64,000 nucleotides of DNA, from positions 416,001-480,000 of the forward strand of contig CAXWPJ010000010.1 in assembly GCA_963664115.2 (NCBI GenBank), in the 5' to 3' direction. Made by a program: the position numbers and the translations under genes. Below are positions 1 to 63,840 of this stretch, piece after piece; the first letter of the stretch is position 1; the number at the start of each line of letters is the position of its first letter. This DNA is from Terriglobia bacterium. GTDB lineage: Bacteria; Acidobacteriota; Terriglobia; 20CM-2-55-15. The notes under the pieces were generated by a model. That model made no database searches, was not told where the DNA came from, and worked only from the letters and a program-made list of their open reading frames with translations.

Positions 1-65
1 ATCGGAACCGCGACGATCAAAGCACCGAGAGACAGGGACAGATGGATCACGATCTTCCTCTTCAT
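1..65 (-). CDS. 5' end of a secreted protein, probably DUF6152-like (runs off the window edge)
   Basis: GGAGG RBS, then ATG at 65 reading MKRKIVIHLSLSLGALIVAVP (signal-peptide-like). It lies next to a family member that is paired with DUF6152 elsewhere in this window. Confidence 0.45.
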   Translation of the reverse strand, partial: MKRKIVIHLSLSLGALIVAVP

Positions 66-225
66 GGGTGACCTCCGTCTTGCTTCAAGACTCCCTGCAT
101 CCTAAGGAACTAAGCTGATTGTAAAGACAGCTCCCGCCACGCGGTCAATTCTGAGATCAAGCTGCCCATAAGCCCGCGTTTCTGGTTCCGGCCCCAGGTC
201 CAGGTGAAGGGCCACCTGCAGGTTA

Positions 226-1116
226 CTAGTTGTCGTTCTCGACGCCGCTGGCGGCGTTGCCGAACAACTCGTTATATTGTTGCATCTCTACCGGCGAGCA
301 GTACATCTCCATGACATCGGTATGGGGGTCTGCCAACTTAAACATGATCTTCATGGTCATCCAGGGTTTTGTATAAACCTTGGGGTCGTCAATCGTCTCC
401 GTCCACTCCATGTGGTCGCTATCCACACGGCGGAAAACTTCCTCTACGGTTACCGCGTCGCTGATCGGCCGACCTGTAGAATCGAGCCAGACTCTGTCTT
501 CCGGCATCATCCCCACCGTCTGGACGACCAGTGTGTAATCATCGGTCCACTTGCCAACCGAGTACCCATACCACCGTGGCTCCTTAAATGTTCCGCCCGC
601 CATCACGCCTCCCTCAACTATCTTGGGGAGCTCTCGCCCATCGATCCAGATGTCCCGCGACCTGTTGTCATATTCATACAGGATCGCGATCTTATATGGG
701 TTCTGAAAGATCTGCGTCATCCTGACGTTGTAGTGATTGATGCGCGGGAATCCTAACGGCTCGCACTTATTCCTCGGATCATTACCAAACGCCGGGAGAA
801 CTGCGTCGACGCCCTCCAGTGCCTTATTGCTCCTGTATAATTCCAACCCGTAAGGAGTGTAAGGCAATGCATGTTCCGGCTTCCCGTCGTTTGGCATGGC
901 CTGCACGCCACCGAACTGGATTGCGCCCCCCGGCCCGCTGGCCGGCGTCCAAGTCCCCGAAAGGTCACGACGTGGAGCAGGTCCTGGTTCGGAACTATCA
1001 GCCGCTTCCGGCGGCCGCCGACCCTGGGCGCGCGTATCAGGCGAGAGTGCCAACACTGTGAATGCTGTAAATACCGCAATCAACACAGTCGCCGGAAACA
1101 GAAAAGGCTTTGCCAT
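226..1116 (-). CDS. Secreted hypothetical protein (GxWxxDTLVV / C-x-P-x-G family)
   Basis: 296-aa ORF with signal peptide. Motifs DPRNKCEPLG, GYSVGKWTDDYTLVV and DDPKVYTKPW; paralog of 19107-19859. Confidence 0.8.
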   Translation of the reverse strand: MAKPFLFPATVLIAVFTAFTVLALSPDTRAQGRRPPEAADSSEPGPAPRRDLSGTWTPASGPGGAIQFGGVQAMPNDGKPEHALPYTPYGLELYRSNKALEGVDAVLPAFGNDPRNKCEPLGFPRINHYNVRMTQIFQNPYKIAILYEYDNRSRDIWIDGRELPKIVEGGVMAGGTFKEPRWYGYSVGKWTDDYTLVVQTVGMMPEDRVWLDSTGRPISDAVTVEEVFRRVDSDHMEWTETIDDPKVYTKPWMTMKIMFKLADPHTDVMEMYCSPVEMQQYNELFGNAASGVENDN

Positions 1117-1192
1117 TTGGAAACCCCTCCGACTTCAAGTTAGCCTACATTTTACTTACCCGAAATAAATTTTTAGCCCTCCCTCCGGAAGC

Positions 1193-1459
1193 GTGGAGTA
1201 TACACCCGTTTCGGGCACTGGAATTCTCGTAGCCGTACCGATTCAAACCAGTCCGACGTTTGCAACGAGTAGACTGCGGGAATTGTTTCCACTTGCTCGG
1301 TTACGAGCTATGAATAATGTCGCTAACTACGACATCGAACCTGAAGGTGAGAGATTCATCATGACGACAGAGGACGAGGCAGGGGAGGCATCCTCGAAAC
1401 AAATCAACATCGTCCTGAACTGGTTTGAGGAACTGAAAGAACGGGTGCCGGTGCCATAG
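1193..1459 (+). pseudogene. C-terminal relic of a Ser/Thr protein kinase with a TolB/WD40-like tail
   Basis: Translation ends NYDIEPEGERFIM...QINIVLNWFEELKERVPVP*, the characteristic terminus of acidobacterial kinase-beta-propeller proteins. No kinase domain is present upstream. Confidence 0.75.
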
Positions 1460-1588
1460 TTTTTGAGTTCAAGTCCTGATAAATCGCAGTATGAAAGGAC
1501 GCCCCTAGACTGGGGGTTGTTGAGAGAAGACTCACTCAACAACCTGATCAACGTATACAGCGTTGATCCCAGAAAAGGAGCGTTCGAG

Positions 1589-2653
1589 ATGAAACAAGAC
1601 AAGTATATGGGTATGGATGTGCACCAGGCAACGACGGTGGTTGCGGTGAGAGACGGGAGCGGCAAACTGGTGTTTGAAACGATCGTGGAAACCGAGGCGG
1701 GGAGTATCACACGGCTGCTGGAGGGATTGAGTGGGCCGATGCACGTGGGGTTGGAGGAGACCACGCAAGCGGGCTGGTTATCGGAAGTGATCCGGCCGTG
1801 GGTGAGCGAGGTGGTGGTGTGCGATCCGCGACAGAACAAGTGGATGCAAGAAGGGTCGAAGGGGGATAAGCCGGATGCGCGGAAGCTGGCCGAGCTGTTG
1901 CGGGTGGGACTGTTGCGCTCGGTGTATCACGGCCATGAAGCGACGCGAGAATTGAAGCAACTGGTGCAGGCCTATGACACGTTCCAGTTGGACACGCAAC
2001 GGGTGATGTCGCGGATCAAAGCGATATACCGGGGACGGGGGATCCCGACACCGAAGGACGGAGTCTATCGGCCGAGTCAGCGCGAACAGTGGTTGGAGAA
2101 GCTGACCGAGCCGGGGATGAGGCAGCGCGCCCGATGGTTGTATGCGGAACTGGACCAGGTCCAGTTGCTGCGGAAACAATCCAGAAAAGCGGTGCGAGTG
2201 GAGGGCCGGCACCATGAGGCGGTGAAACTGCTCGAGACCATTCCACAACTGGGACCGGTTCGGGCGGCACAGATCGTCGCCATCGTGGACACGCCGTACC
2301 GATTCCGCACGACACCGCAGTTCTGGAGCTACAGTGGCCTGGGTGTGGTGACCCACATGAGCGCGGAGTATGAGATGCAGAGTGGACGTGTGGTGCGACG
2401 GAGGAAACCGGTGGCCACACGCGGATTGAATGCGAACTGCAACCGGCGATTGAAGTCGGTGTTCTTCTCAGCCGCGGCATCGGGAAAACAAAGCGAGCCG
2501 TATCGGATTTATCTGGAGAGTCTCCAGATGCGTGGGATGCGGGAGGAAATGGCGCGGGTCACTCTGGCCCGTAAGATCGCCGCACTGGTGCTGACGCTTT
2601 GGAAGAAAGGAGAATCGTTCGATCCAAAGAAACTGAGCTGGATGACAACATAA
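1589..2653 (+). CDS. IS110 family transposase/recombinase
   Basis: AGGAG RBS before ATG 1589. DEDD RuvC-like motifs (GMDVH, LEE, DKPDA) and C-terminal IPQLGPV, YSGL and LARKIA motifs. Confidence 0.93.
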   Translation: MKQDKYMGMDVHQATTVVAVRDGSGKLVFETIVETEAGSITRLLEGLSGPMHVGLEETTQAGWLSEVIRPWVSEVVVCDPRQNKWMQEGSKGDKPDARKLAELLRVGLLRSVYHGHEATRELKQLVQAYDTFQLDTQRVMSRIKAIYRGRGIPTPKDGVYRPSQREQWLEKLTEPGMRQRARWLYAELDQVQLLRKQSRKAVRVEGRHHEAVKLLETIPQLGPVRAAQIVAIVDTPYRFRTTPQFWSYSGLGVVTHMSAEYEMQSGRVVRRRKPVATRGLNANCNRRLKSVFFSAAASGKQSEPYRIYLESLQMRGMREEMARVTLARKIAALVLTLWKKGESFDPKKLSWMTT

Positions 2654-2719
2654 GCCGTTTCGATCCGTGACCGGTAGAGCCGTACTGAGTCGTTAGACGG
2701 AGTCGGAACAACTGAGGAT

Positions 2720-2845
2720 CGAGGGTGAGGATCTGCACAAGATGTGGTCCCTGGATACGTCCAGAGGACACTTTTAAATCTCTATCCCCCCTCGCACGAC
2801 CTGAAACAGCGATAGCCTTCGAGGCTCAGATAGATCCATGGTCGG
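2720..2845 (+). ncRNA. Predicted bridge/seek RNA of IS110 element 1 (target loop and donor loop)
   Basis: Two stem-loops. Their internal loops carry ACAAGATG and TAAATC (match the target) and GCGAT and ATAGATC (match the circle junction). True transcript ends are unknown. Confidence 0.75.
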
Positions 2846-3368
2846 CACATGCCGTCCCATATGCTGTTCAGTTTCTGAATCGACCGTCTTAAAGATGTAC
2901 GATTTCGCTCCGGATTGCCGGAACCAGGGCTTCACATAACGGTAGAGGGGCTGGCTGTCACGACAAAAGTGTCCGTCTGGCCGGCCATCGGGGAGCTGTT
3001 TCTCTTGACATCCCCTTTCATAGATCATCTTGTCGGAAGTTGAGAATTGGATTGTGTGGTTTTCGTCGATCCCGAGAGTAGGAAATAGAGACAGTTCTTT
3101 TGTTTTCCTATTGAATAAGACTGGATTCCAGGACTGTGACGGCTCTGAGCCGTTGGTCCAATCCGCCGACCGTCGTCCGGCAGAGCATCAGCGCCGCATA
3201 CCCCAGACACATGCCCCCGCCAATGGTCCATTCCCGGCGAGTTCTGGACAGGTTCAAAACGCTTTCGTTCACGACGTGGAGCCGAAACGTTTGTCAGTCA
3301 AACTTGTCAGAAACTTTCTCGGTGATTGCATTCTGCTTGGACTCGATATTCGAGTGCGCTATTTTTCG

Positions 3369-5753
3369 CTAGCCGCTCAACCATCCCGGCAGAATAGCCT
3401 TGATCTGGTTCCAATAGATCGCGCCGAGAATTACGACAGCGAGCAGGGCGAATAGGGAAACCGCACCGACACGAGTCCAACGAGTTCCTCCGTGGCCGGT
3501 CTGACGTAGGAAGAGGGTGACCAGATCGCGGCGTTCCTTGCGTGCCCCTTCTGGCAAGTGGGGCGTGTGGCTGAAGAGGTATCCGAGCCGCCGCGTCATG
3601 TACATGCGGAAGTTCACCGCCCAGCCGCAGGCCTCCAACAGAGCGCTCATGTCCCGCTTGCGCAGCTTGTTCCAACCCGCAAGGGCACTGAACAGGGCCA
3701 CCACGAGAACCAGGCTCATCAAGGTAATGCCGACCCTCAGAAGGCTGATTTCCGAAAGTGTGCTGATCAGGTAGGCCAGCGATGAACCGATGGCGGCGAA
3801 GGCAATGCCGCCGCCAAGCAGCAGGTCGCGCATGCCAATGCCAGATTGGGGTGGGGCTTGGGCCGATGGCGCCTCGGCAGGCTGCTGGAGCGATTCGCCT
3901 GCTTCCATCTTCGTCGTGACCTCGGTCGTGGCCTTTTCCAGGGATCCCGCCTGGGTGCCTACAAAGGCTTCAACCTTCTCGGATATTAGTTTCTTGGCTT
4001 TCACAAAAGGCGACTTGACCGCTTCGCCCAGGCTGATGGGGTTCTCGATCAAATCCACCACTCGTGCGTCCCACTCATTGCCATCGAGATCATAGAAGAT
4101 ACCGCGCTTGCCAATTTCGATGGCCCCCTGGCCGCCGGAGGTGAGAGCGGCGGCAATCTCGAAACTGGGCCCCAGCCCCTCGGGTACAGTGATCTCGGCG
4201 TACACCAGGTACATCTCGCTGGCCTGGGCGATCTTCTTGTGCTCGGCGCGATTTCGGACCTTTGTCGTGAATGTAAGTTCACGGCCGTCAATGATCAGGT
4301 CGCCCAATTCAAACAGGGCGCGGCGATCCGGGTCGTACATCGCGGAGAAACTTACAAAGTTGTTGGCCAGTTCCAGGAGCCAGCGTTGGTACAGGATGAG
4401 CGTCTCCAGGTCCGTCACCTGCTTCACTTCATCCTTCACCGCTAGATCCTCCAGCAGGAGCTCGAAGAGCCTCTTCTCGGCCGGACCATCTAAATATTCC
4501 CTCAGCGTTGTCTCGCTGATCCGTCCGACGCCATCCGACGGCTTTCCCGCCTGCCACCCTCGGTAGGGCTCGAAAATGGCCTGGACCTGCCCCCAGCCGA
4601 TCCGCGTGAGAGATTGGCGGGAGTTTGGCTGGGCACGGGCAAGGACCCGATTTTGTAATTCGTCCATCTGTTCCCGGTAGTACGGATTGATGGGGCCCCG
4701 CAGATTCAACACACCTTCAGCGTTTGGCGTTTGCAGGGGCGCTCGCGCGAGCTGACTTCTCAGAGCTTCCAGGTCGGAGCCGTCCAGGTTCCAGAGATCG
4801 TGTTCATTCAGGCAGATGCGTTCGGCGGTGCGGGCATCGAGCTGGACCATGTCGCATTGCAAGAAGAACTGTCGGATCTTGGCATCGAACTCCGACGTGA
4901 GCTTCACCGCGGCCGCCGTGTCGCCGCCCCAGGGCAGAATCCCTGCCGCGCCGTCATCTTCGGCGAGCGTCTTCCAGTCCAGGTACGTCCTCGCACGATC
5001 CAGGAATTGGCGCAGGTGATCTTCGTTTATTCCGTCTGCGCCGCTGATGTCCTTGGTACTGCCGACCTGTTTGAGTACGTCCGCTGCCAACTGTGCCGCC
5101 CCGGGATCCGAAACGTGCTCGGGGGGGAGCACCCCGTCGCCGTTGGGAGGCAATTTCCCATATGTATTCTGAAATACGCGGACCTGTTCGAGGCTGATCT
5201 GGTCCATGTTCTTTGCCTTCAACTGGCCCAGGATATGGATCGCGGCTTCCTGGAGCCCCCGGCCCTCCTCGTGGCTGGTATCCAGGTCCGCGAGGCGCAG
5301 GACATCGGAGGACTCAGCCATTCGGTCTCTCGTTGCCATCATATGGAATGTCCAGGTCACTCCCGCCCGCAAATGCTCGGCACGGATTGTCCCGCTGCCA
5401 TCCTGATTCAAGTACTTGAGGAACGCGGGATCGCATTGCAGGCTTTCGATCTGCACACTGGTGGCAGCCCAGCGAGCGGGGTGGAGCTGGTGAATGAAGG
5501 CCAAATCCTCCGCACTCTCGATGCGCAGTTGGTGGATGCCGCCGTAATTTCGAAAGACAATGGGCTTCACAACCCACATTCTACTCTGGAGTGTCCCGGC
5601 CGCGTGGGTGCCACACGTATTTTCGCCGCGATCCGGTTTCCGAAGGTGCGGGTGGCGATTCGTTAGTTTCTTGTCGAAATCCGTTAGATTTCCTTTCTTG
5701 CGATCATGTTCTGAAAATCCGCTCAGGGGCGCGAGCGGCAGAACTGACGTCAA
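3369..5753 (-). CDS. Large uncharacterised protein with C-terminal transmembrane helices
   Basis: 794-aa ORF; the true start is probably near 5579 (MWVVKPIVFRNYGG). It has an EF-hand-like NQDGSGTI motif and about three hydrophobic segments at the C-terminus. Confidence 0.8.
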   Translation of the reverse strand: MTSVLPLAPLSGFSEHDRKKGNLTDFDKKLTNRHPHLRKPDRGENTCGTHAAGTLQSRMWVVKPIVFRNYGGIHQLRIESAEDLAFIHQLHPARWAATSVQIESLQCDPAFLKYLNQDGSGTIRAEHLRAGVTWTFHMMATRDRMAESSDVLRLADLDTSHEEGRGLQEAAIHILGQLKAKNMDQISLEQVRVFQNTYGKLPPNGDGVLPPEHVSDPGAAQLAADVLKQVGSTKDISGADGINEDHLRQFLDRARTYLDWKTLAEDDGAAGILPWGGDTAAAVKLTSEFDAKIRQFFLQCDMVQLDARTAERICLNEHDLWNLDGSDLEALRSQLARAPLQTPNAEGVLNLRGPINPYYREQMDELQNRVLARAQPNSRQSLTRIGWGQVQAIFEPYRGWQAGKPSDGVGRISETTLREYLDGPAEKRLFELLLEDLAVKDEVKQVTDLETLILYQRWLLELANNFVSFSAMYDPDRRALFELGDLIIDGRELTFTTKVRNRAEHKKIAQASEMYLVYAEITVPEGLGPSFEIAAALTSGGQGAIEIGKRGIFYDLDGNEWDARVVDLIENPISLGEAVKSPFVKAKKLISEKVEAFVGTQAGSLEKATTEVTTKMEAGESLQQPAEAPSAQAPPQSGIGMRDLLLGGGIAFAAIGSSLAYLISTLSEISLLRVGITLMSLVLVVALFSALAGWNKLRKRDMSALLEACGWAVNFRMYMTRRLGYLFSHTPHLPEGARKERRDLVTLFLRQTGHGGTRWTRVGAVSLFALLAVVILGAIYWNQIKAILPGWLSG

Positions 5754-5983
5754 TAGTTCGGCTCGATTGGCGTCGCTTTTCTGCTGCGGAGGCCTTGTTC
5801 TGGGCCGTCGTGGACATCATCAACTTAAGCTGTTCGATGGCGTTTTCGGCTCCCTCTGTCGCCTCCGGCGACAGTTTTGCCGGCATCTGGCCATCCATTG
5901 CACTGCAAACCCTGCTGCCGAGTAGAGGAAGCCACTATCGGTCCGTAGGTATCCCCTTGGCCGTATCCGCCGTTTCCGGCATC

Positions 5984-5998
5984 GTGCCCGTGCCCTGA
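5984..5998 (+). pseudogene. Last codons (VPVP*) of a deleted kinase gene
   Basis: GTGCCCGTGCCCTGA ends 12 nt before site B, the same terminus and spacing as at 1459 and 15380. Confidence 0.55.
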
Positions 5999-6119
5999 TC
6001 TTCAAGGTCAAGTCCTGTATCTGGACTCCTCTGTCAAGTAGGCGCAGCTCTCCCGTCAGCTTTCTTCGGCAAAATGCATTCAGCAGGACTGACTAGAAGT
6101 TACGAGGTGAGTAGCTAGT

Positions 6120-7966
6120 CCCTGAACAAGCGTGATTGACGAGGAAATGATAGTGCAATAAGAGCGGAAGTACCCGAAATGCCCCCTCTCCGTGCGAAAA
6201 AAACCTTGAACAGATTCTTCGGAAAAGGAGGCATTTCAGATGAACGATTATACGCGCAAGAACATGAGGAACCGCAAGCGGCGAATCGAACGTCGGCTTG
6301 GGGACCGGCATTGGACGGATCAGGTAGAGCCGATGTTTTCGGCGAGCAACATTCAGTACGAGATGGGAGAGCGGACGCGGGGCACATCGGTTGGTGGTAT
6401 CGGGACGATGCAACTGGTGGCGCGGCGGACCGGGCTGATCGAAGCCATCGACAAGGGCGTGCATGTGTTGAAGCGGCACCTGCCGTATCACGAGTCGGAT
6501 CACGTGCTGAACATCGCCTACAACGCCTTGAGCGGAGGAACGTGCCTGGAAGACATCGAACTGCGGCGCAACGATGCGGTGTATCTGGATGCGCTGGGAG
6601 CGCAACGGATTCCGGATCCGACGACGGCGGGAGACTTCTGCCGGAGATTCGAGGCCGACGACGTGGAGTGTCTGATGGAGGCAACCAATCAAGTCCGGCT
6701 CGGAGTCTGGCGACAGCAACCGGCGGCGTTTTTCGAAGAAGCGGTGTTGGACGCGGACGGGACACTGGCCGAAACCACGGGGGAATGCAAGCAAGGGATG
6801 GACGTGGCCTACGACGGGACGTGGGGATATCACCCGCTGATGATCTCGCTGGCCAACACCGCCGAACCGCTGTATCTGGTCAATCGTAGCGGCAACCGGC
6901 CGTCGCATGAAGGAGCCGCGGTCCGGTTCGACCAAGCCATCGCATTGTGCCGGCATGCGGGGTTTCGCCAGATCCTGCTGCGCGGGGACACGGACTTCAG
7001 CCAGACCCGGCATCTGGACGGATGGGACGACCAGCAGGTGGGTTTCATATTCGGGATTGACGCGATGGCGAACCTGAAGGCCCGGGCCGATGAACTGGAG
7101 CCGCGCCAGTGGAAGCGCCTGGAACGGCCCGCGAAATACGACGTGGCGACCGAACCGCGCCAACGTCCCGACAACGTGAAGGAAGAGATCGTTCGGCAGC
7201 GCGGTTTCGACAATATCCGCTTGCAGGGTGAGGATGTGGCCGAGTTTCGGTATCGACCCGGAGCCTGCGATCGGGACTACCGTGTCGTCGTGGTGCGGAA
7301 GAATCTGTCGGTGGCCAAAGGAGAGCAGGTGTTGTTTGACGACATCCGGTACTTCTTCTACATTACCAACCGTTCGGATCCGGCCGACCAGATTGTGATG
7401 CGTGCCAATCAACGGTGCAATCAGGAGAATCTCATTGAGCAGTTGAAGAACGGCGTTCAGGCGTTGCGGATGCCGGTCGGAGATCAGACCAGCAACTGGG
7501 CCTACATGGTGATCGCGTCACTGGCCTGGACACTGAAAGCGTGGTTTGCATTGCTGCTTCCCGAAACCGGACGTTGGGGCCAAAAATATCAGGCTGAGAA
7601 GCAAACCGTGCTGCGCATGGAGTTCAAAACCTTCTTGAACGCTTTCATGCTTGTGCCGTGCCAACTCGTGCGCACCGGGCGGCGCATTCTGTTCCGGATC
7701 CTGGCCTGGAACCGGTGGTTGCCGGTCTTGTTCCGCGGGGTGGATGTGTTGCGTCAGCCTCTGCGATGTTGACCCGATCATGACTCTGAGCCCGGGCGAT
7801 CGAGGTCCCGGTTTCTGTCAACCGTCCAACACCAGCGAGGCTGAACTGAAACAGATTCAACAGAAACTCGATACCTGGAACAGGCCATCCGGGAACGGGA
7901 TTCTATGCCTCGAATTCTATCGGCGCGAACTGGGCCTCGGCGGACTGGTTATGCGCTTGTTTTGGG
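6120..7966 (+). mobile_element. IS1380 family element, copy 1 (1847 bp)
   Basis: Ends CCCTGAACAAGCG and CGCTTGTTTTGGG; 6-bp TSD GCTAGT on both sides. Confidence 0.95.
6240..7772 (+). CDS. IS1380 family DDE transposase
   Basis: 510 aa with LDADGT, GYHPL, LRGDTDF and RCNQENLIEQLK motifs; five near-identical copies in the window. Confidence 0.93.
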   Translation: MNDYTRKNMRNRKRRIERRLGDRHWTDQVEPMFSASNIQYEMGERTRGTSVGGIGTMQLVARRTGLIEAIDKGVHVLKRHLPYHESDHVLNIAYNALSGGTCLEDIELRRNDAVYLDALGAQRIPDPTTAGDFCRRFEADDVECLMEATNQVRLGVWRQQPAAFFEEAVLDADGTLAETTGECKQGMDVAYDGTWGYHPLMISLANTAEPLYLVNRSGNRPSHEGAAVRFDQAIALCRHAGFRQILLRGDTDFSQTRHLDGWDDQQVGFIFGIDAMANLKARADELEPRQWKRLERPAKYDVATEPRQRPDNVKEEIVRQRGFDNIRLQGEDVAEFRYRPGACDRDYRVVVVRKNLSVAKGEQVLFDDIRYFFYITNRSDPADQIVMRANQRCNQENLIEQLKNGVQALRMPVGDQTSNWAYMVIASLAWTLKAWFALLLPETGRWGQKYQAEKQTVLRMEFKTFLNAFMLVPCQLVRTGRRILFRILAWNRWLPVLFRGVDVLRQPLRC

Positions 7967-7974
7967 GCTAGTCG

Positions 7975-8107
7975 ACTGCACCCGTATCTTCGGCCTCAAA
8001 AGTGGAACTGTATTGTTCCAGGCCATGATGGAAATTTGCGCGCGGGGAGCCAACCGATAAAATAACGGCCTCTAAGGGCCAAAGGACTTGTCGGCGTTGC
8101 CCCGCGC
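7975..8107 (-). ncRNA. Predicted bridge/seek RNA of IS110 element 2
   Basis: On the minus strand the stem GCGCGGGG/CCCCGCGC encloses CAAGTCCT and TTTATC (target match). The next loop holds CCATCAT and AGATA (donor-junction match). Confidence 0.75.
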
Positions 8108-8178
8108 CGGTCTGACCGGTACGCCATCATCTCGAACCTCATCGCAGCTCGCTGAAAAGATATTCCGACTGTTCCGGG

Positions 8179-9213
8179 TCAGGCCGCCTGATACCGGGCC
8201 TGATGGTCACAGTCACGGTTCCAAACCGCCCACACGCGACGCGCCAACTTGTTGGCCAGTGCAACGATTGCCTTGTTGTGTCCGCGGAACTCGTGTTTCT
8301 GGAGACCCCATTGCTGGAGAGGTGTCGGTGTGGCGCCCTCTCGATGGGCACTCCACAACAGGGAACGGCCCCCATGAACCAACAGCATCCGGAGGTAACG
8401 ATCGCCTTGCTTACTGATCCGGCCCATGCGTCGCTGGTTGCCACTGGAATGTTCCCGGGGTGTGAGTCCCAGATAACTGGCAAAATGGCGGGACGTTCGG
8501 AATCGTTTGATGTTTCCAACAAACCCCACCATTGCCGTTGCCGTTAACAGGCCGATGCCGGGAATCGACGTCAGACGCGCGACCTCAGGCATCTGCCGAG
8601 CCAGCGTCTTCAACTCTTGTTCCACCGATCGCATGCGAGATTCCAATTCACGGATCTCGCCACACACCTGGTGAAACATCTCCCGAACGACACTGGGGAT
8701 GACGACATCTGCATCTTCGATCAGCTCCATTACCCCCGGCACCAGATGATCCGCTCCGGTCGGGATCACGTAGCCAAACTCCCGTAACAACCCCCGCACC
8801 GTATTGATCCGTGCGGTTCGGGTTCGCATCCACGCCGAACGGATTCGATGCAATGAGGTCAGTTGCTGTTGGGCCAGGGTTTTGACCGGCACTGGATGAA
8901 TATCGCTGTCACGATAGGCTTCCAACAATCCTTTCACATCCGTACGGTCGGTCTTGTTGCGCCTGACGTAGGGCGTCACATACTGCGGCGAGATCAGAAC
9001 GACCGTGTGTCCCAGTTCCCGGATCTTCCGACCCCAGTAATGGGCGGATCCGCAGGCTTCCATCACCACGGTCGCCAGCTCCTGGTTCGCAAAGAACCCC
9101 AGAAACTTTGCCCGACTTAAACGATAGGTTTTCTCTACATGCCCGGGGCGATCTGAAACACCAATTTGAAAAACATTCTTTGCCAGATCCACTGCTATCG
9201 TTCTATTCTTCAT
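8179..9213 (-). CDS. IS110 family transposase/recombinase
   Basis: MKNRTIAVDLAKNVFQ, MEACG, KTDRTD, SIPGIG, LGLTPREHSSG, GRISKQGD and ALANKLAR motifs. Confidence 0.95.
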   Translation of the reverse strand: MKNRTIAVDLAKNVFQIGVSDRPGHVEKTYRLSRAKFLGFFANQELATVVMEACGSAHYWGRKIRELGHTVVLISPQYVTPYVRRNKTDRTDVKGLLEAYRDSDIHPVPVKTLAQQQLTSLHRIRSAWMRTRTARINTVRGLLREFGYVIPTGADHLVPGVMELIEDADVVIPSVVREMFHQVCGEIRELESRMRSVEQELKTLARQMPEVARLTSIPGIGLLTATAMVGFVGNIKRFRTSRHFASYLGLTPREHSSGNQRRMGRISKQGDRYLRMLLVHGGRSLLWSAHREGATPTPLQQWGLQKHEFRGHNKAIVALANKLARRVWAVWNRDCDHQARYQAA

Positions 9214-9373
9214 CTCGGACTCCTTTTTGTTCACACGTACACGTGTTTCGCCCGCTTTATTGCGAGGCTCAAAATGACTTTGGCACTTCGATGCCGACTC
9301 AGTCATCAAAGAGGAGTCCATACCATCAATAAATCATCTTCTCGGACGTTGAGAAACCCGCTGATTCAAATCA

Positions 9374-9402
9374 TTGCTTCCAACCCACTCGTTCTATAGC
9401 TT
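9374..9402 (+). promoter_or_regulatory. Putative sigma70 promoter between site B and the kinase start
   Basis: TTGCTT-N17-TAGCTT, about 50 nt upstream of ATG 9452. Confidence 0.4.
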
Positions 9403-9451
9403 TCTCGAGCTTTTTCACGTTTAGCAACATCAGAGACAAGGCCCCGAGCGT

Positions 9452-9568
9452 ATGCCCCTCACGTCAGGCACAAAACTCGGTCCGTTTGAGATCCGTGATG
9501 CGATAGGTGCGGGTGGCATGGGCGAAGTCTATCGGGCCACCGATACGCGGCTGGGCCGCACTGTTTAG
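9452..9568 (+). pseudogene. N-terminal relic of a Ser/Thr protein kinase
   Basis: Reads MPLTSGTKLGPFEIRDAIGAGGMGEVYRATDTRLGRTV*, a Hanks-type glycine loop truncated just before the VAIK lysine. Confidence 0.88.
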
Positions 9569-9719
9569 GGCTCTGTATCGGACTGAGAATTATGATAAGA
9601 AGTGTGACATGATGCGGTCTTCGAATCTGGATGTTCACGGTTCTGGGTGTTATCCAGGAATACGCCCGCATTCCTGTTGAGAGATACGACCCGCAACCTG
9701 AACAGCAATGAGCGCTAGT

Positions 9720-11566
9720 CCCAAAACAAGCGCATAACCAGTCCGCCGAGGCCCAGTTCGCGCCGATAGAATTCGAGGCATAGAATCCCGTTCCCGGATG
9801 GCCTGTTCCAGGTATCGAGTTTCTGTTGAATCTGTTTCAGTTCAGCCTCGCTGGTGTTGGACGGTTGACAGAAACCGGGACCTCGATCGCCCGGGCTCAG
9901 AGTCATGATCGGGTCAACATCGCAGAGGCTGACGCAACACATCCACCCCGCGGAACAAGACCGGCAACCACCGGTTCCAGGCCAGGATCCGGAACAGAAT
10001 GCGCCGCCCGGTGCGCACGAGTTGGCACGGCACAAGCATGAAAGCGTTCAAGAAGGTTTTGAACTCCATGCGCAGCACGGTTTGCTTCTCAGCCTGATAT
10101 TTTTGGCCCCAACGTCCGGTTTCGGGAAGCAGCAATGCAAACCACGCTTTCAGTGTCCAGGCCAGTGACGCGATCACCATGTAGGCCCAGTTGCTGGTCT
10201 GATCTCCGACCGGCATCCGCAACGCCTGAACGCCGTTCTTCAACTGCTCAATGAGATTCTCCTGATTGCACCGTTGATTGGCACGCATCACAATCTGGTC
10301 GGCCGGATCCGAACGGTTGGTAATGTAGAAGAAGTACCGGATGTCGTCAAACAACACCTGCTCTCCTTTGGCCACCGACAGATTCTTCCGCACCACGACG
10401 ACACGGTAGTCCCGATCGCAGGCTCCGGGTCGATACCGAAACTCGGCCACATCCTCACCCTGCAAGCGGATATTGTCGAAACCGCGCTGCCGAACGATCT
10501 CTTCCTTCACGTTGTCGGGACGTTGGCGCGGTTCGGTCGCCACGTCGTATTTCGCGGGCCGTTCCAGGCGCTTCCACTGGCGCGGCTCCAGTTCATCGGC
10601 CCGGGCCTTCAGGTTCGCCATCGCGTCAATCCCGAATATGAAACCCACCTGCTGGTCGTCCCATCCGTCCAGATGCCGGGTCTGGCTGAAGTCCGTGTCC
10701 CCGCGCAGCAGGATCTGGCGAAACCCCGCATGCCGGCACAATGCGATGGCTTGGTCGAACCGGACCGCGGCTCCTTCATGCGACGGCCGGTTGCCGCTAC
10801 GATTGACCAGATACAGCGGTTCGGCGGTGTTGGCCAGCGAGATCATCAGCGGGTGATATCCCCACGTCCCGTCGTAGGCCACGTCCATCCCTTGCTTGCA
10901 TTCCCCCGTGGTTTCGGCCAGTGTCCCGTCCGCGTCCAACACCGCTTCTTCGAAAAACGCCGCCGGTTGCTGTCGCCAGACTCCGAGCCGGACTTGATTG
11001 GTTGCCTCCATCAGACACTCCACGTCGTCGGCCTCGAATCTCCGGCAGAAGTCTCCCGCCGTCGTCGGATCCGGAATCCGTTGCGCTCCCAGCGCATCCA
11101 GATACACCGCATCGTTGCGCCGCAGTTCGATGTCTTCCAGGCACGTTCCTCCGCTCAAGGCGTTGTAGGCGATGTTCAGCACGTGATCCGACTCGTGATA
11201 CGGCAGGTGCCGCTTCAACACATGCACGCCCTTGTCGATGGCTTCGATCAGCCCGGTCCGCCGCGCCACCAGTTGCATCGTCCCGATACCACCAACCGAT
11301 GTGCCCCGCGTCCGCTCTCCCATCTCGTACTGAATGTTGCTCGCCGAAAACATCGGCTCTACCTGATCCGTCCAATGCCGGTCCCCAAGCCGACGTTCGA
11401 TTCGCCGCTTGCGGTTCCTCATGTTCTTGCGCGTATAATCGTTCATCTGAAATGCCTCCTTTTCCGAAGAATCTGTTCAAGGTTTTTTTCGCACGGAGAG
11501 GGGGCATTTCGGGTACTTCCGCTCTTATTGCACTATCATTTCCTCGTCAATCACGCTTGTTCAGGG
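9720..11566 (-). mobile_element. IS1380 family element, copy 2
   Basis: Same ends as copy 1; TSD GCTAGT on both sides. Confidence 0.95.
9914..11446 (-). CDS. IS1380 family transposase
   Basis: Protein identical to 6240-7772. Confidence 0.93.
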   Translation of the reverse strand: MNDYTRKNMRNRKRRIERRLGDRHWTDQVEPMFSASNIQYEMGERTRGTSVGGIGTMQLVARRTGLIEAIDKGVHVLKRHLPYHESDHVLNIAYNALSGGTCLEDIELRRNDAVYLDALGAQRIPDPTTAGDFCRRFEADDVECLMEATNQVRLGVWRQQPAAFFEEAVLDADGTLAETTGECKQGMDVAYDGTWGYHPLMISLANTAEPLYLVNRSGNRPSHEGAAVRFDQAIALCRHAGFRQILLRGDTDFSQTRHLDGWDDQQVGFIFGIDAMANLKARADELEPRQWKRLERPAKYDVATEPRQRPDNVKEEIVRQRGFDNIRLQGEDVAEFRYRPGACDRDYRVVVVRKNLSVAKGEQVLFDDIRYFFYITNRSDPADQIVMRANQRCNQENLIEQLKNGVQALRMPVGDQTSNWAYMVIASLAWTLKAWFALLLPETGRWGQKYQAEKQTVLRMEFKTFLNAFMLVPCQLVRTGRRILFRILAWNRWLPVLFRGVDVLRQPLRC

Positions 11567-11591
11567 GCTAGTTTGGAAAGGAGAGAATCCC

Positions 11592-13507
11592 GTGGCGAAA
11601 CCGAAAAAGAGTGGAGTCAACCGTCGTGGTTTCTTGAAAGGTACGGCAATCGGTGCAGCGGCGTTGGTGACGCCGGTGCCGCTCACGCAGGCGCAACAAG
11701 CCGGCCCGCAGCCGGGCACGGCCGCACTGCCCTCTTCCGCGGAGTTGGCGGCCGAGACTGAGCCGCTGCCGCCAGACAGTCAAGTTTTGACCGTGCAGGA
11801 CGCCGGCTCGGATTTCATGGTGGACGTCTTCAAGTCGCTTGGCTTCGAATACATCGCCTCGAATCCCGGTTCGAGTTTCCGAGGTCTTCAGGAGTCATTT
11901 ATCCATTACGGCGGTAACCAGAATCCCGAGTGGCTGACTTGCTGCCATGAAGAGTCATCGGTTGCATTAGCCGACGGCTACTTCCGAGTTTCAGGCAAGC
12001 CAATGATGGTCATGGCGCATGGAACAGTAGGGTTGCAGCACGCGGCGATGACGATCTATAACTCCTTCGTTGCCCGGACCCCCGTTTATATCGTCCTCGG
12101 TAACGCTCTCGACGCCAACACCAGGCGGCCCGGCGTGGAGTGGAATCACAGCGTGCAGGATGCGGCGGCGATGGTTCGCGACTACATCAAGTGGGACGAT
12201 ACGCCGTATTCGCTGCAACACTTTGCCGAGTCGGCTGTGCGGGCCTACAAGATTGCGATGACCGTGCCGATGGCGCCGGTCGTACTGGTGGCCGATGGCG
12301 ACCTGCAGGAGTTCCCGACCGGGGACCGTTCCAGATTGCGTATCCCAAAGCTGACGGTGACGAGGCCGCCCGCGGCCTCTCCCGAAGCATTGGCTGAAGT
12401 GGCCCAATTGCTTGTGGCCGCGGAAGACCCCGTGATCGTTGCCGGCAACGCGGCGCGTACGGAAGAAGGAATGCGACTGATGGTTGAACTGGCTGAGACG
12501 CTTCAGGCGCCGGTGCAAGGGGGTAGCCGCAACATGCCCAATCGGCACTCCTTGAGTGGTGGCGGTGCGCTCGGCAATGCGGACGTGATTCTCGGTCTGC
12601 AGGTGAACGATTTCTGGGGGACGACCCATAGGCTCCGCGATCAGCAGGAACGCTCGTACCGATCAATTACCAAACCCGACGCTAAACTTATTAGCATCTC
12701 CACGAACGATCTGTACACAAAAAGCAACTATCAGGACTTCCAGCGCTACGCTGAGCTGGACATGGCGATTGCTGCCGACGTGGAAGCGACCCTCCCATCG
12801 TTGATCGAGGCCTGCAGGCGGCTCATCACGGGGGATCGCAGGCGTGTCCTCGAGGAGCGCGGCAACAGAATTGCTGCCACAAATGCACAGGCTTTGGCGC
12901 GCGCACGCACGGCAGCGACTCACGGATGGAATGCCAGCCCGATCAGCACCACGCGAATGGCTATGGAGTTGTGGGAAGCAGTTAGAACCAAAGACTGGGC
13001 GCTGGTGCGGGCTGGAAGGAGCACCCAACTGTGGAATATCGATAGGTTCTATCGGACAATAAGCGGCGGGGGCGCAGCTGCTGTTGGCTCCGGCCTTCCG
13101 ACGTCTGTCGGTGCGGCGCTCGCCCACAGGCCATATGGGCGGCTGTGTATCGGCATTCAGAATGACGGAGACATGATGTATGCGCCGGGGCCCTGTGGAC
13201 TGCCGCGCACCACCGCATTCCGCTGTTGCTGGTCATGCATAACAACCGCGCGTATCACCAGGAAGTCATGCACATCCAGCGCATGTCCAACCGTCGGCAG
13301 CGCGGAGTGACGACGGCAACCGACGGCGTTGGGACGAAGATTGAAGATCCCAATATCGATTACGCAACACTTGCCCGAAGCATGGGTCTGTACGGGGAAG
13401 GGCCCATTTCCAATCCCAATGACCTGGGACCGGCGCTACGGCGCGCGGTCGAGCGGGTGGAACAGGGCGAACCGGCACTGGTCGACGTCGTGACTCAACC
13501 CCGATAG
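11592..13507 (+). pseudogene. Thiamine-diphosphate-binding enzyme with twin-arginine signal, frameshifted near 13187-13190
   Basis: NRRGFLK Tat motif, HEES, GDMMY; continues in another frame as HNNRAY...LVDVVTQPR. One G appears to be missing in a G-run, which could be a sequencing error. Confidence 0.8.
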
Positions 13508-13520
13508 GAGGAAAGCGCAG

Positions 13521-13901
13521 ATGTCAGCTGCCATGCGATTCTTGATCATCATGTCCTCCATATTAGTGATGGGCTCGACCCTAAGCGCGCCGACGCTGGC
13601 GCAGGCTCCCGACGTCGCGGTGCCGAGCGGCGACGTCGAAAACGGCAGGCAAATTTACGTCACGTACGGATGCTACCAATGTCACAATTATGCGGCTCAT
13701 GGCGGCAGAGCCGGGCCGCGGCTTGCTCCACGTCCCATAGCCTTTAGGGCGTTCGCTCGTTACGTGCGCACGCCGAGCAATCAGATGCCGCCTTACACCA
13801 CTGAGATCGTCACCGATCAAGAGCTGGCTGATATCTACGCTTTCCTGTTGACTGTGCCACCTCCACCCGCTGTAGACAGCATCCCGATTCTCAACGACTA
13901 G
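13521..13901 (+). CDS. Monoheme cytochrome c
   Basis: Signal peptide, CYQCH and distal MPPY. Confidence 0.9.
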   Translation: MSAAMRFLIIMSSILVMGSTLSAPTLAQAPDVAVPSGDVENGRQIYVTYGCYQCHNYAAHGGRAGPRLAPRPIAFRAFARYVRTPSNQMPPYTTEIVTDQELADIYAFLLTVPPPPAVDSIPILND

Positions 13902-14197
13902 TCACACCCGCACAGCGACGCCGTGATACGCGCCGCTGTGCGTTTCCATTGCTGAAACGTCGACGTTGCCACGGAGTTATTCAAAAGCGGTAACCCCAGG
14001 ACGACCTCGGGACCGGGGCGGCGCTGCTCCAGGCGTTGCTGAAGGGAATCGGGAGTAGTCTTCGCCCAGGCTATCGAGTAAGTTCGGACCATGGTCTTCT
14101 GGAGCTGGCATAGCGAAGTGGATTTCGTCGAGGAAGGCCGTTTTTCGGGGGCTTTCTAGTTACCGCGAAGGCGGTAACACATCCATGTGACCTTTCA

Positions 14198-14226
14198 TTG
14201 ACCCCAAGTCCCCTCCCTCGTATTAT
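14198..14226 (+). promoter_or_regulatory. Putative sigma70 promoter
   Basis: TTGACC-N17-TATTAT upstream of the gene at 14435. Confidence 0.55.
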
Positions 14227-14434
14227 TCAGCCAGATTTTCTAGGTTCTCTTAGCGACACGCAAAAAGCATGGTATCCAGCGCACAGCCAGGCAATTCAAA
14301 GGCAGGATGGCAGAAGTGCTGAAAGCCAAGGACGAAAAACTGGTCGGCGTGATTGAGGGAATCGTTTTCCTAGACATCGACGTTCAAAAATCCTAGCTAT
14401 AGCCCCACAAGCCATAAAACCAGAGGGTAATGCC

Positions 14435-15196
14435 ATGAAGTTTCTTCTGAGTGCCCTAGCCGCCGTCACAGCGGCAGCTAACATTTGCGCATTGGCCCAG
14501 GACTCTGGCGTCGTGCGTGTCCTTAGTTCTAATGGAGTGCGAGTTGTGCTCGAGGAGATGCAGCCGCAGATCGAACAGAGCATAGGACGACGGCTCGCGT
14601 TTGAGTTTAGTACTTCGCGAACTCTGACGGACCGGATCGAGGCAGGCGAAGCATTCGACGTGGCCATACTTACGCCGAGACTCATCGATGAGTTGATCTC
14701 GTTGCAGAAGGTGACGCCAGGGTCGAGCAACGAGTTCGCTCGAGTCGGCATTGGCGTAGGGAGTCGACAGGGAGCGCCTGTCAAGAGCGTCGACACACTG
14801 GAGGACCTCCGACGGACATTTCTAGAGGCGGAATCAGTTGCCTTCGGCTCGGACGGTCAGAGCCGACGAACCAACGAAGCAAGCTTCGAGGCCCTGGGCA
14901 TCGAAGATGAAATGCAGAGCAAGACGACATTGACGGGTCCGGGTGAAGCGCCCGTGCTCGTCGCGGAGGGTGAGATCGAGTTAGTACTGACCCTGGTCAG
15001 CGAGTTGTTACGCGAGCCAGGCGTTCAGCTACTTGGGCCACTGCCTCCTGAGGTCCAGGCATATGTCCACTTTGCCGCGGCCATGAGTGCGGGCGCTGGG
15101 GATCCAAGCACGGCGAGAACGCTTATCAACTTCTTATCGACCCCTGCTTTTGGAGCGGCTCTGGAGAAAAATGGTCTGGAGCCGATGAATCCGTAG
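14435..15196 (+). CDS. ModA-like periplasmic substrate-binding protein (orphan)
   Basis: Signal peptide; RIEAGEAFDVAILT, ARVGIGV, VAEGEIEL and LGPLPPEVQ motifs; no permease nearby. Confidence 0.8.
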   Translation: MKFLLSALAAVTAAANICALAQDSGVVRVLSSNGVRVVLEEMQPQIEQSIGRRLAFEFSTSRTLTDRIEAGEAFDVAILTPRLIDELISLQKVTPGSSNEFARVGIGVGSRQGAPVKSVDTLEDLRRTFLEAESVAFGSDGQSRRTNEASFEALGIEDEMQSKTTLTGPGEAPVLVAEGEIELVLTLVSELLREPGVQLLGPLPPEVQAYVHFAAAMSAGAGDPSTARTLINFLSTPAFGAALEKNGLEPMNP

Positions 15197-15321
15197 CGTT
15201 GAACCCTCCAATGCGAGCAGGATCACATGCCTGCAGGCGGACGTCGAAATTTCGTTGCCGCCCTATCCACCCGTTTTGCGGACAGTCTCCAGTTATCTAT
15301 ACTCTGATTCGACAGACACTT

Positions 15322-15380
15322 AAATCAACGTGGTCTTGATTCGGTTTGAAGAACTGAAGGAACGGGTGCCGACCCCCTGA
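15322..15380 (+). pseudogene. Degenerate C-terminus of a kinase gene
   Basis: INVVLIRFEELKERVPTP*, closely similar at DNA level to 1402-1459. Confidence 0.75.
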
Positions 15381-15392
15381 TTCCCGAGGTCA

Positions 15393-15420
15393 AGTCCTGA
15401 CAAATCATCTTCTCGGACGT
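15393..15420 (+). repeat. dif-like site C (intact)
   Basis: AGTCCTGACAA-ATCATC-TTCTCGGACGT; imperfect inverted arms that extend to TCAA...TTGA. Confidence 0.8.
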
Positions 15421-15538
15421 TGAGAAACCATGTGGCACGTATAAATTCCTGACACCCTCCGATCTCTCAAGTCACGCCACCCGGTTCTTGTGCAAAAAAG
15501 TCAATTGAACTGGTTGTCACCAGGTTACACTCCGAGGA

Positions 15539-15926
15539 ATGGGACGCGGCATCGGCTTCATTTCGTTGATTCTTGCGGCGGCAGTCGGGGCATATCTTTA
15601 CTCAGAGCAGGCCAGTAACGTCACGCCGGGTGGCGGTGGACCGACAGATGCTATTGATGTGACCAGCGTGCGAATGGATCTCATAGGAATCGCCCAAGCC
15701 GAACGCACGTACTTTGCTACGAATGGCAGGTACGCTTCGCTGGATGAACTGCGCGCCAACGGTGACACGCAAATCACCCGCGACAGACGTCCCAACTATA
15801 CGTACTCCGTCGAGACCAGCAACCAGCAACGCAGGCTTCAGGATTATCGCTGACTACTCCGGCCCTGATCCTAATGCGACCAAACGCATCAGCGTTGACG
15901 AAACGCTCACCGTGCGTACTGAGTAG
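15539..15926 (+). pseudogene. Pilin-like hypothetical protein, frameshifted by a 7-bp duplication
   Basis: N-terminal TM helix and AQAERTYFATNGRYASLDEL. ACCAGCA is duplicated at 15815-15828; removing one copy fuses ORFs 15539 and 15714. Confidence 0.7.
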
Positions 15927-15961
15927 ACAGAACCGGCTATTCGGACAACAGTCCATTCTCA

Positions 15962-15989
15962 AGTCCTGAGAAATCATCTTGTCGGACAT
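15962..15989 (+). repeat. dif-like site D (intact)
   Basis: AGTCCTGAGAA-ATCATC-TTGTCGGACAT. Confidence 0.8.
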
Positions 15990-16234
15990 TGAAAATTGGC
16001 AGATTACTGAGGTTTACTTTGTGCAATTTTCTACGATGTCGTTTCGCAGGAATTGAGAATTATTTAGCACCTAACGCCCTCCCTTAGTATTTTTTATAGA
16101 GTTTTTCACAGTTCAATTTGGGACACACTATGTAGCTTCAGCATCTGGTGCGCGCGATTGGCCGTTGCCCGCGTGCGCCGTGCTAAGGCATCCCGCGTCT
16201 CCCGGAAGACGCGGTGTGTGCGATTGTTTCCCAG

Positions 16235-63685: not shown

Positions 63686-63840
63686 GCGTTCCACCGTCGC
63701 GCTGGAGCACGGCGGGTTGGGCCTGCGTGCGAGCTAATAGGATTCCTGTAGGTTCAGATCTTAATTGTCACACCGGTTTGTCCACAGACTCGTCGTTTCT
63801 ACTATTTGTAGTTTTATTATTTGTCTTATTACTTGTAAGA

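Follow-up and report, generated by a model that had tools for sequence, protein, structure and literature searches.

We think it probable that the window, by which we mean the whole 64,000-nucleotide stretch of DNA analysed here (positions 1-64000), is part of genome-wide arrays built on a site with two spacer classes, that the modules of these arrays are moved by a 321-aa recombinase, and that a kinase gene was the founding cassette. Modules bounded by the sites occur in different places and in different orders across the source genome, an uncultured Terriglobia bacterium (G000; C2, C5 and C9 denote its contigs).

Kinase stubs, sites and cargo in the window

At sites A, B and C, kinase stop codons (1457-1459, 5996-5998 and 15378-15380) lie 12 nt before the 28-bp cores of the sites (starting at 1472, 6011 and 15393), as the original prediction had it, and a kinase N-terminus does follow site B. 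The tail before site B is real as well, at a length of only about four codons. Sites A and B are not intact, each being split by an IS110-type insertion, and among the three only site C (15390-15423) is whole. The features are:

1193-1459, plus strand: C-terminal stub of a Ser/Thr kinase-PD40 propeller protein, about 77-96 aa, ending FEELKERVPVP and stop
1469-1485, plus strand: site A, left arm and first half of the spacer
1486-3023, plus strand: IS110 in the spacer of site A, transposase 1592-2653; seven genome copies, inserted in sites
3024-3043, plus strand: site A, spacer and right arm
3369-5753, minus strand: cargo of module A-B, a 794-aa protein with no Pfam match
5984-5998, plus strand: four-codon kinase tail, VPVP and stop, 12 nt before site B
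6008-6017, plus strand: site B, outer part of the left arm
6018-9328, minus strand: IS110-family element in the left arm of site B, with subterminal inverted repeats, transposase 8179-9321
6115-7971: IS1380-type element nested in the IS110-family element of site B
9329-9352, plus strand: site B, remaining left arm, spacer ATCATC and right arm
9353-9451, plus strand: kinase leader from one of the leader families that recur after class-A sites; putative promoter
9452-9568, plus strand: kinase N-terminal stub, 38 aa, MPLTSGTKLGPFEIRDAIGAGGMGEVYRATDTRLGRTV and stop
9715-11571, minus strand: IS1380-type element, with over 70 genomic copies or pieces
11592-13901, plus strand: cargo block 1, a TPP-dependent enzyme (frameshift near 13186) and a cytochrome c
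14435-15196, plus strand: cargo block 2, a solute-binding protein (SBP_bac_11)
15322-15380, plus strand: kinase C-terminal stub, INVVLIRFEELKERVPTP and stop
15390-15423, plus strand: site C, intact class A, 14-6-14, spacer ATCATC
15539-15853, plus strand: cargo of module C-D, a 104-aa ORF with no Pfam match
15959-15992, plus strand: site D, intact class A
16020-16059, minus strand: degenerate inverted class-B site after a short A-B gap, spacer TGTCGT on the plus strand at 16037-16042
16060-16130, plus strand: decayed class-B kinase leader with no kinase behind it

Module B-C had been read as one kinase whose middle was swapped for cargo. It is a mosaic instead: in the sister-species genome G002, block 1 is 99% identical and stands in another context, while block 2, with the tail and site C, is 97% identical, apart from block 1 and within another module. 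Three further runs yield short-read contigs over 11600-15415 that carry no substitution, and a single extra base appears in one of the runs; this region is therefore not a long-read artefact. Because the short-read contigs break at the sites, they are uninformative about rearrangement, and where they join between sites C and D the sequence belongs to other copies of the repeat. An Rfam search of positions 1-17000 gave no match.

The site has two spacer classes that do not mix

Over its copies in G000, the site is a 34-bp palindrome in a 14-6-14 layout, conserved for 3 bp past the 28-bp core on both sides, with an invariant, asymmetric 6-bp spacer. The genome carries 168 full sites (157 after removal of assembly overlaps), and a shuffled genome carries none. 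Together with partial sites (44 left-only and 70 right-only) they form 49 clusters, and the arrays span about 630 kb, or 13% (about an eighth) of the genome.

Among the full sites the spacer ATCATC occurs 126 times and ACGACA or ACGACC 20 times. These two classes, A (ATCATC type) and B (ACGA type), each keep their own flanks: a kinase leader lies beside the left arm of 22 of 24 full ACGA-spacer sites and of none of the 128 ATCA-spacer sites. Class A sites stand downstream of kinase stops, with a kinase tail upstream of 80 out of 164, and class B sites stand upstream of the leaders, which may be promoters. The basic unit reads A, 18 bp, inverted B, leader, kinase, 12 nt, A. B-kinase-A and A-18 bp-B alternate, with 14 A-to-B gaps of 15-19 bp and fixed spacings of 12, 18 and 76 nt, and direct A-A units predominate over other arrangements. 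Modules are multi-gene, their ORFs running with the array in 126 cases and against it in 68 (IS genes counted), and IS110, IS30 and IS91-type elements are inserted at or near sites.

Kinase genes were site-bounded units that lost their bodies

Genome-wide, 161 kinase-like tails score at least 28, against 21 in a codon shuffle. After 87 of them a left arm was detected in the next 300 nt, the distance being exactly 12 nt in 64 cases and 22 nt in nine; the codon and genome shuffles exclude chance for the 12-nt distance seen in this survey of kinase-like tails. Each of the five full-length NWFEELK-subfamily kinases is flanked on either side by a site, be it whole or damaged, which bears out their description as site-bounded units. 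A full-length kinase of another subfamily has no site at either end.

Against the five intact genes there are about 130 stubs. The proposed loss of kinase bodies with retention of ends and sites is borne out by these stubs and by two loci, C2:744533 and C2:271515, where an internal deletion joins N- and C-terminal parts directly. No two of the 49 N-stub breakpoints agree in both place and sequence, the median N-stub is 116 nt long, and 106 of 132 tails show no homology past about 45 aa. Stubs are far shorter than one random deletion gives, so that repeated erosion or some capture step is needed. A search for a junction motif common to every stub found none; two junction sequences recur (in five and two cases) and may be IS ends.

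Two broader proposals of the original prediction fared less well. An ancestral tandem of site plus kinase is right as to the site-bounded unit, and wrong as to the simple tandem, since the two spacer classes stand in inverted orientation. Cassette movement was also offered as a possible source of the large expansions of these kinases in acidobacterial genomes. Outside the family, however, none of the 28 best kinase matches has the site or a similar palindrome within 200 nt of its stop, and the site thus leaves the general expansion unexplained; one genome (G085) has 103 kinase C-termini but five sites.

Modules are found in different arrays, with boundaries at sites

That site-bounded modules have moved, as predicted, is seen in near-identical copies that lie in different arrays and whose homology ends at sites. 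The eight module pairs checked lie in unrelated flanks (43-55% flank identity) with their boundaries at sites; some duplicated modules in G000 are assembly overlaps or strain variants. Of 29 pairs of full A sites that share a flank, 19 share one side only. In the comparison with the sister species, of 65 A sites sampled against G002, eight share one flank and none keeps both neighbours. Modules are found in shuffled order, their crossovers falling at sites of the same spacer. Where a pair has one flank in common, the arm on that side is identical in 9 of 18 cases, which is above chance (11-20%) and below the prediction of a clean spacer crossover, so conversion or homologous recombination also acts.

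The site counts of relatives are 100 in G002, 59 in G003, 15 in G001 and 4 in G004. In G002, 70 sampled A sites, covering part of its sites, yield no flank-sharing pair where about 3-5 are expected. This is what a frozen array would give, although the contrast is weak.

A 321-aa Xer-like protein is the likely recombinase

The best candidate for the recombining enzyme is a 321-aa Xer-like tyrosine recombinase, judged by its sequence and gene neighbourhood. Its single-copy gene (C5:52189-53154), with catalytic-type motifs intact, lies between two inverted B sites and two divergent kinase N-stubs. A 60% homologue in another family (G323) lies between inverted sites that share a spacer and have similar inner arms; after it come site, kinase, site, kinase, site, ORF and site, with two spacer classes. 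Sites, or kinases and a site, also lie near the homologues of G007 and G030, and related sites vary between families together with the homologues. Of the 65 windows flanking 34 homologue loci, 6 hold such a palindrome; the figure is 10 for 1300 shuffled windows and 7 for 1080 random ones. By contrast, 28 of the 34 loci have none under a detection rule that recovers 116 of the 168 G000 sites. Our first view of the gene as mere cargo was dropped after homologue loci in other genomes showed sites or kinases.

The gene is broken in G001 and was not found in G002 (97% complete, 2 contigs), G003 or G004. Other enzymes were considered and set aside. The Cre-like enzyme of G002/G003 has its own, different 13-8-13 sites; IS91-associated integrases (301-311 aa) lie at or near sites, but have no close relative among the G003 loci compared; and the nearest of the three serine resolvases of G000 is about 6 kb from a site.

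Other explanations

The same cassette system could be run by host XerC/XerD, possibly by XerC alone or with an activator, with the 321-aa gene as just cargo. We regard this as unlikely, while noting that both genes are present in G000 (products above NCBIfam cut-offs), that XerC and XerD are the sole tyrosine recombinases common to G000-G004 among those compared, that one site arm is XerC-like (8/11 to the XerC arm of host dif, with a variant at 10/11 to that of Solibacter), that inverted sites, spacer classes and fusion modules follow the grammar of pdif sites (PMC13141974), and that a need for activation would account for tolerance of 160 sites. The other arm, however, matches the host XerD arm at only 5/11, even though the XerD arm is kept in the relatives' dif; conservation runs 3 bp beyond the core on both sides; and related sites differ between families along with the 321-aa homologues. 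Nor is the site, with 168 full copies, the single terminus site of the chromosome: host dif is separate and single at C2:108118-108145, at the GC-skew switch and with a canonical XerD arm, and a separate single dif with a conserved XerD arm exists in all five relatives searched. Identity with dif had been suspected from one strict match each in G007 and G017; those matches adjoin kinase stubs, and dif is separate. More doubtful still is a spread of palindromes that happened once, followed by reshuffling through homologous recombination and gene conversion between near-identical 34-40-bp repeats and kinase tails with no dedicated enzyme active. It would fit the inner arms that are often not co-inherited with their module, the absence of the candidate enzyme among site-rich relatives where it was sought, and the up to about 60 bp of homology that tails add beside the site. 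It sits poorly with the exclusive pairing of spacers and flanks and the fixed spacings, with single modules duplicated into distant arrays with both ends at sites, and with the recurrence of recombinase, site and kinase in G323; it also leaves the origin of the site unexplained.

VCre/VloxP and SCre/SloxP comprise lox sites near their own Cre-like gene on a phage-plasmid (PMC3082901). The 34 bp of our site can likewise be read as 13-8-13, with 22 of the 26 arm bases the same as in VloxP (11/13 and 11/13); with an array-arm matrix, VloxP is the top match on plasmid p0908 at 41.1, the next unrelated place scoring 19.4. It is nevertheless quite improbable that these are lox-type sites served in trans by a VCre-like recombinase from a plasmid or phage missing from the bin. 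Here the sites number in the hundreds, a VCre-like gene was found in none of G000, G001 and G004, the Cre-like gene of G002/G003 has different sites, viral contigs searched for the site pattern gave no match, as did a plasmid search with the site region, and a constitutive Cre-type enzyme would be expected to scramble a genome with 160 sites. Fourteen metagenome contigs, all short, carry the site, and none carries a recombinase gene. We give very little credence to a RAYT transposase having placed REP/REPIN-like repeats at gene ends, for all that short palindromes by the hundred, inverted doublets, their targeting by IS110 and IS30, and one Y1_Tnp gene 300 bp from a solitary site recall such repeats. 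That gene has no site on its other side and a second G000 copy lies about 2.9 kb away; moreover, the sites follow one gene family only, their spacer is invariant and asymmetric, and homology breaks are exact.

Comparison with known cassette systems

The closest known system is that of the Acinetobacter dif modules, which comprise pdif sites and C, D and fused CD modules, with chromosomal islands of up to 22 sites (PMC13141974, PMC12907356); no published account of a system like the present one was found. These modules are defined by genes between inverted sites, alternating types, and fusion modules between direct sites (PMC13141974). The present arrays share the asymmetric palindromes with a 6-bp spacer, the spacer classes, the genes between inverted sites, the directly bounded fusion modules, the shuffling and the targeting of sites by IS elements. 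They differ in lacking an XerD arm while keeping the 11-6-11 core and one XerC-like arm of chromosomal dif, in their conserved 14-bp rather than 11-bp arms, in about 160 intact chromosomal sites, far above those 22, with one dominant spacer and mostly direct fusion modules, in module ends drawn from one kinase family, and in having their own candidate recombinase.

Sedentary chromosomal integrons are similar in their large accessory-gene arrays bounded by repeated recombination sites and, in some relatives, in arrays apparently without their own recombinase. Integron attC sites are longer imperfect hairpins with R''/R' boxes, and integron cassettes are mostly single ORFs in one orientation. 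Here, by contrast, the site is a short double-arm palindrome with a conserved span of 34 bp and a fixed 6-bp spacer, the cargo is multi-gene and in both orientations, and about 49 clusters replace one array. The 321-aa protein scores 60.7 bits against the IntI profile TIGR02249 (cut-off 265), and an IntI-like gene at C9:714.6 kb, identified by eye, has no site nearer than 105 kb.

Discussion

We propose that the 321-aa Xer-like recombinase excises, integrates and inverts modules. Recombination would be confined to sites with the same spacer, so that A-to-A pairs could be released as circles able to reinsert at any further A site, and DNA between inverted A sites would be flipped. Kinase cassettes may have been amplified and diversified, their bodies then being lost to deletions and IS insertions while the sites survived. 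Where the inner B site disappeared, adjacent pieces would have been fused into direct A-to-A units, making unrelated genes between a kinase leader or N-stub and a tail mobile. The abundant site would also have served as a landing pad for IS110, IS30 and IS91-type elements.

More tentatively, the arrays might be a third natural cassette platform beside integrons and dif modules, with a dedicated Xer-like recombinase, lox-like sites of two classes, and kinase-chassis ends actively joined to new DNA. If such a platform exists, the cell could make mobile cassettes of ordinary chromosomal genes and scramble 13% of its chromosome, and the arrays would show the birth of new cassettes. For integrons and dif modules it is not yet settled how a cassette comes into being. 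Here the roughly 130 kinase stubs record how a presumed founding cassette lost its interior and how its ends came to bound other genes. The arrays also offer a recombinase and a site that can be tested directly as a pair, the two spacers being apparently orthogonal and the site close in sequence to VloxP, which is used in genome engineering. Shuffling by a Xer-like enzyme would make them an integron-like gene storage built from different parts.

The array site and its basic unit

Scanning the 4.89-Mb assembly of the source genome (G000) with a matrix identified 168 full, 44 left-only, 70 right-only and 1 unclassified array sites in 49 clusters, or 157 full, 44 left-only and 68 right-only sites when one copy of each assembly overlap is removed, versus 0 full, 2 left and 4 right matches in a shuffled genome. 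The conserved span is a 34-bp palindrome (14-6-14), whose spacer defines class A (ATCATC, n = 126) and class B (ACGACA/ACGACC, n = 20). Sites separated by less than 15 kb enclose ~632 kb of DNA, corresponding to 13% of the assembly.

Class B is inverted relative to class A and often follows it after 15-19 bp. A kinase leader lies on the left-arm side of 22/24 full ACGA-spacer sites versus 0/128 full ATCA-spacer sites, and the kinase start codon is mostly 76 nt beyond the class B site. Thus, the basic unit is A - 18 bp - inverted B - leader - kinase - 12 nt - A. A leader class with the start codon 101 nt after A may have lost most of its B site.

Kinase genes and their remnants

The kinases are NWFEELK Ser/Thr kinase-PD40 propellers. 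G000 contains 161 kinase-like C-terminal tails scoring at least 28, against 21 in a shuffle; the tail-to-core distance is exactly 12 nt for 64 tails and 22 nt for 9. A tail lies upstream of 80 of the 164 class A sites with a left arm, and in the congeneric genome G002, by a simpler rule, of 41/65 A sites versus 4/2000 random windows. The original prediction would not have held for intact kinases lacking flanking sites; all five full-length members still present (one with an internal stop) are site-flanked at both ends, some of these sites being damaged or separated by IS elements. A full-length G000 kinase of another subfamily has no site at its ends.

Across 43 tails, the exact peptide FEELKERVPVP is written in 33 DNA spellings, and these tails therefore derive from many diverged kinase copies. 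Homology past ~45 aa is absent in 106/132 strong tails. N-terminal stubs end within 450 nt in 47/49 cases (median 116 nt) at differing breakpoints, with some alignments possibly shortened by sequence divergence, and include two direct N-to-C internal deletions. We propose that erosion leads from a kinase cassette to new cassettes.

Sites, modules and insertions in the window

The three kinase stops, their 12-nt gaps to sites and the kinase start described earlier were all found again in the window. Among its sites A to D, only C and D are intact. On the 3' side of D, a short spacer leads to an inverted site that is degenerate and carries a different spacer, and then to the decayed remains of a kinase leader. 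Mobile elements at or near array sites are as follows.

Window 1486-3023: IS110 splitting site A at the spacer
Window 6018-9328: second IS110-family element with nested IS1380, splitting the left arm of site B
G000 C2:317985-319195: IS30 inserted in a site
G000 C1:92926, C12:569262, C3:2939 and five more: integrase/IS91 elements

The IS elements inserted in sites are of three unrelated types, two from the IS110 family and one IS30, with fixed insertion points within the site, and IS30 enters sites of both spacer classes and both orientations. Elements carrying an integrase and an IS91 transposase have their start in or close to half-sites; for two of them it coincides exactly with the boundary between spacer and arm. 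Several element ends coincide with GTT points, which we take to resemble integron crossover points.

Module B-C, between sites B and C, had been read as one unit of kinase N-terminus, cargo and kinase C-terminus. It proved to be a mosaic: two of its parts, the TPP-enzyme/cytochrome block (99%) and the block comprising the solute-binding protein, tail and site (97%), are found in G002 in different contexts. Three other runs have contigs that span 11600-15415 with zero substitutions, and pieces at full identity are present in one sponge-metagenome run. Relative to the assembly, short-read contigs of one run carry an extra base at 13186, the TPP-gene frameshift, and those of three runs are 7 and 6 bases shorter at 15815 and 16017. 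Positions 3369-5753 encode a 794-aa cargo protein without a Pfam match and with a hydrophobic C-terminal part, and a 33-bp unit is repeated five times head-to-tail at 63839-64000, continuing past the window end.

Cargo of the modules

Array cargo comprises accessory metabolism and secreted proteins, with many transposases. The 18 array loci and their flanks yielded 218 non-redundant ORFs; of the 148 that were scanned, 13 encode DUF6152 proteins and seven metallo-beta-lactamase-fold hydrolases. The orientation of cargo ORFs is mixed (126 versus 68). Genes of core-chromosome type (ribosomal S1-type protein, HemD, aldehyde dehydrogenase, SelO) hint at capture of chromosomal DNA.

Array loci with core-type genes
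L012:3973-5511
L009:13096-15773
L010:15630-17261

Probable movement of modules

Site-bounded modules have very probably moved. In each of the eight module pairs examined, the two copies belong to different arrays and their boundaries are at sites, beyond which the flanks are unrelated. In all, 29 pairs of full A sites have a flank in common at 93% or more. For 19 pairs this holds on a single side, which we count as about 14 independent events; the other 10 pairs match on both sides and represent overlaps or duplicated stretches. Among 65 A sites in 395 kb sampled from G002, eight have one flank in common with a site of G000, and none has two. The shared-side arm is identical in 9/18 one-flank pairs versus 11-20% by chance; this is too few for a clean spacer crossover, so conversion or homologous recombination contributes. 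Homologous recombination alone would be an improbable explanation. Spacer class may restrict excision and integration.

At one site, the upstream flank is that of a C6 site and the downstream flank that of another C6 site in inverted orientation. This recombinant junction combines two arrangements that share the same modules and possibly reflects strain variants.

Sites at the junction
G000 C11:55481: recombinant site
G000 C6:27116 and C6:39774: C6 sites

Candidate enzymes for the site

G000 has 27 tyrosine-recombinase matches. One, a 321-aa Xer-like protein, is enclosed by a pair of inverted B sites and a pair of divergent kinase N-stubs, and we somewhat favor it as the enzyme of the arrays. 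In G323, from another family, inverted same-spacer sites bracket a 60% homologue; next comes the series site-kinase-site-kinase-site-ORF-site, in which the sites are of two spacer classes and an IS30-like gene adjoins one of them. A homologue faces two kinases and a site in G007, and lies beside cargo bracketed by two same-spacer sites in G030. Near homologues at 34 loci, 6/65 flanking windows contain a 14-6-14 palindrome versus 10/1300 shuffled and 7/1080 random windows, with none at 28/34 loci. The protein scores under the XerC, XerD and IntI cut-offs. Among congeneric genomes, its gene was not found in G002, G003 or G004, and the G001 copy is broken; G002 gave 0 flank-sharing pairs among 70 sampled A sites against ~3-5 expected, a weak difference.

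Host XerCD acting on the arrays is unlikely. The array site matches the host dif at 8/11 positions of the XerC arm and 5/11 of the XerD arm. A Cre-like enzyme supplied in trans seems very improbable. Read as 13-8-13, the site matches VloxP, the VCre site of plasmid p0908, at 11/13 positions in each arm, and VloxP is the top match of the array-site matrix on p0908; no VCre-like gene was found in G000.

A Cre-like recombinase of G002 and G003 with 33% identity to VCre is flanked by its own inverted 13-8-13 sites, which share one spacer and differ from the array site; that of G003 is interrupted by a stop.

Cre-like recombinase loci
L103 (G002:C2:483486-487358), also L102 and L104

An integron-integrase-like gene (G000 C9:714590-715873) lies far from every array site.

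Comparison with known systems

The array site is not the host dif, since a separate canonical dif stands alone at C2:108118-108145 on the GC-skew switch. Counterparts exist in 5/5 relatives searched (three in G002); acidobacterial dif sequences were taken from PMC3025954. G004 (C14, C16, C21) has few array sites, mostly with spacer ATCCGG, and one right arm resembles a XerD arm shifted by one base.

Acinetobacter dif modules (PMC13141974, PMC12907356) work alike, including fused directly bounded modules, but the array site fails the XerD-arm test. Integrons are similar in effect, but the arrays fail the IntI, attC and cassette-form tests. Compared with Cre/lox (PMC3082901, PMC4957104), G000 has a lox-like site without a Cre-like gene. 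A literature search, with subscription papers and bioRxiv supplements outside it, found no description of such arrays in Acidobacteriota.

Distribution and the kinase expansion

By a relaxed pattern, genomes of the genus have 151, 100, 59, 15 and 4 sites and those of other genera of the family 0-5, with 14/35 genomes matching. The exact pattern occurs in 10 stretches of the GTDB collection, all Terriglobia MAGs, a count that perhaps omits our own and the closest records, and in 14 metagenome contigs and 0 viral contigs.

The original prediction extended the sites to the kinase expansion across Acidobacteriota, which the counts do not support. Among best kinase matches per genome, a clear site accompanies 4/30 within the family (two further cases are marginal, and another has a half site split by an IS) and 0/28 outside it, by matrix or sequence-free palindrome rule; these counts omit a single locus from an unpublished genome. 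G085 combines 103 kinase C-termini with five sites, and kinase expansion is therefore independent of the site. In G323, kinases of another subfamily form cassettes with a related site.

Together, our results show that the arrays are a real cassette system on the scale of the genome, which we would group with dif modules, with kinase-derived module ends and, likely, a dedicated recombinase. They could conceivably be an active cassette-forming platform, a reading we regard as doubtful.
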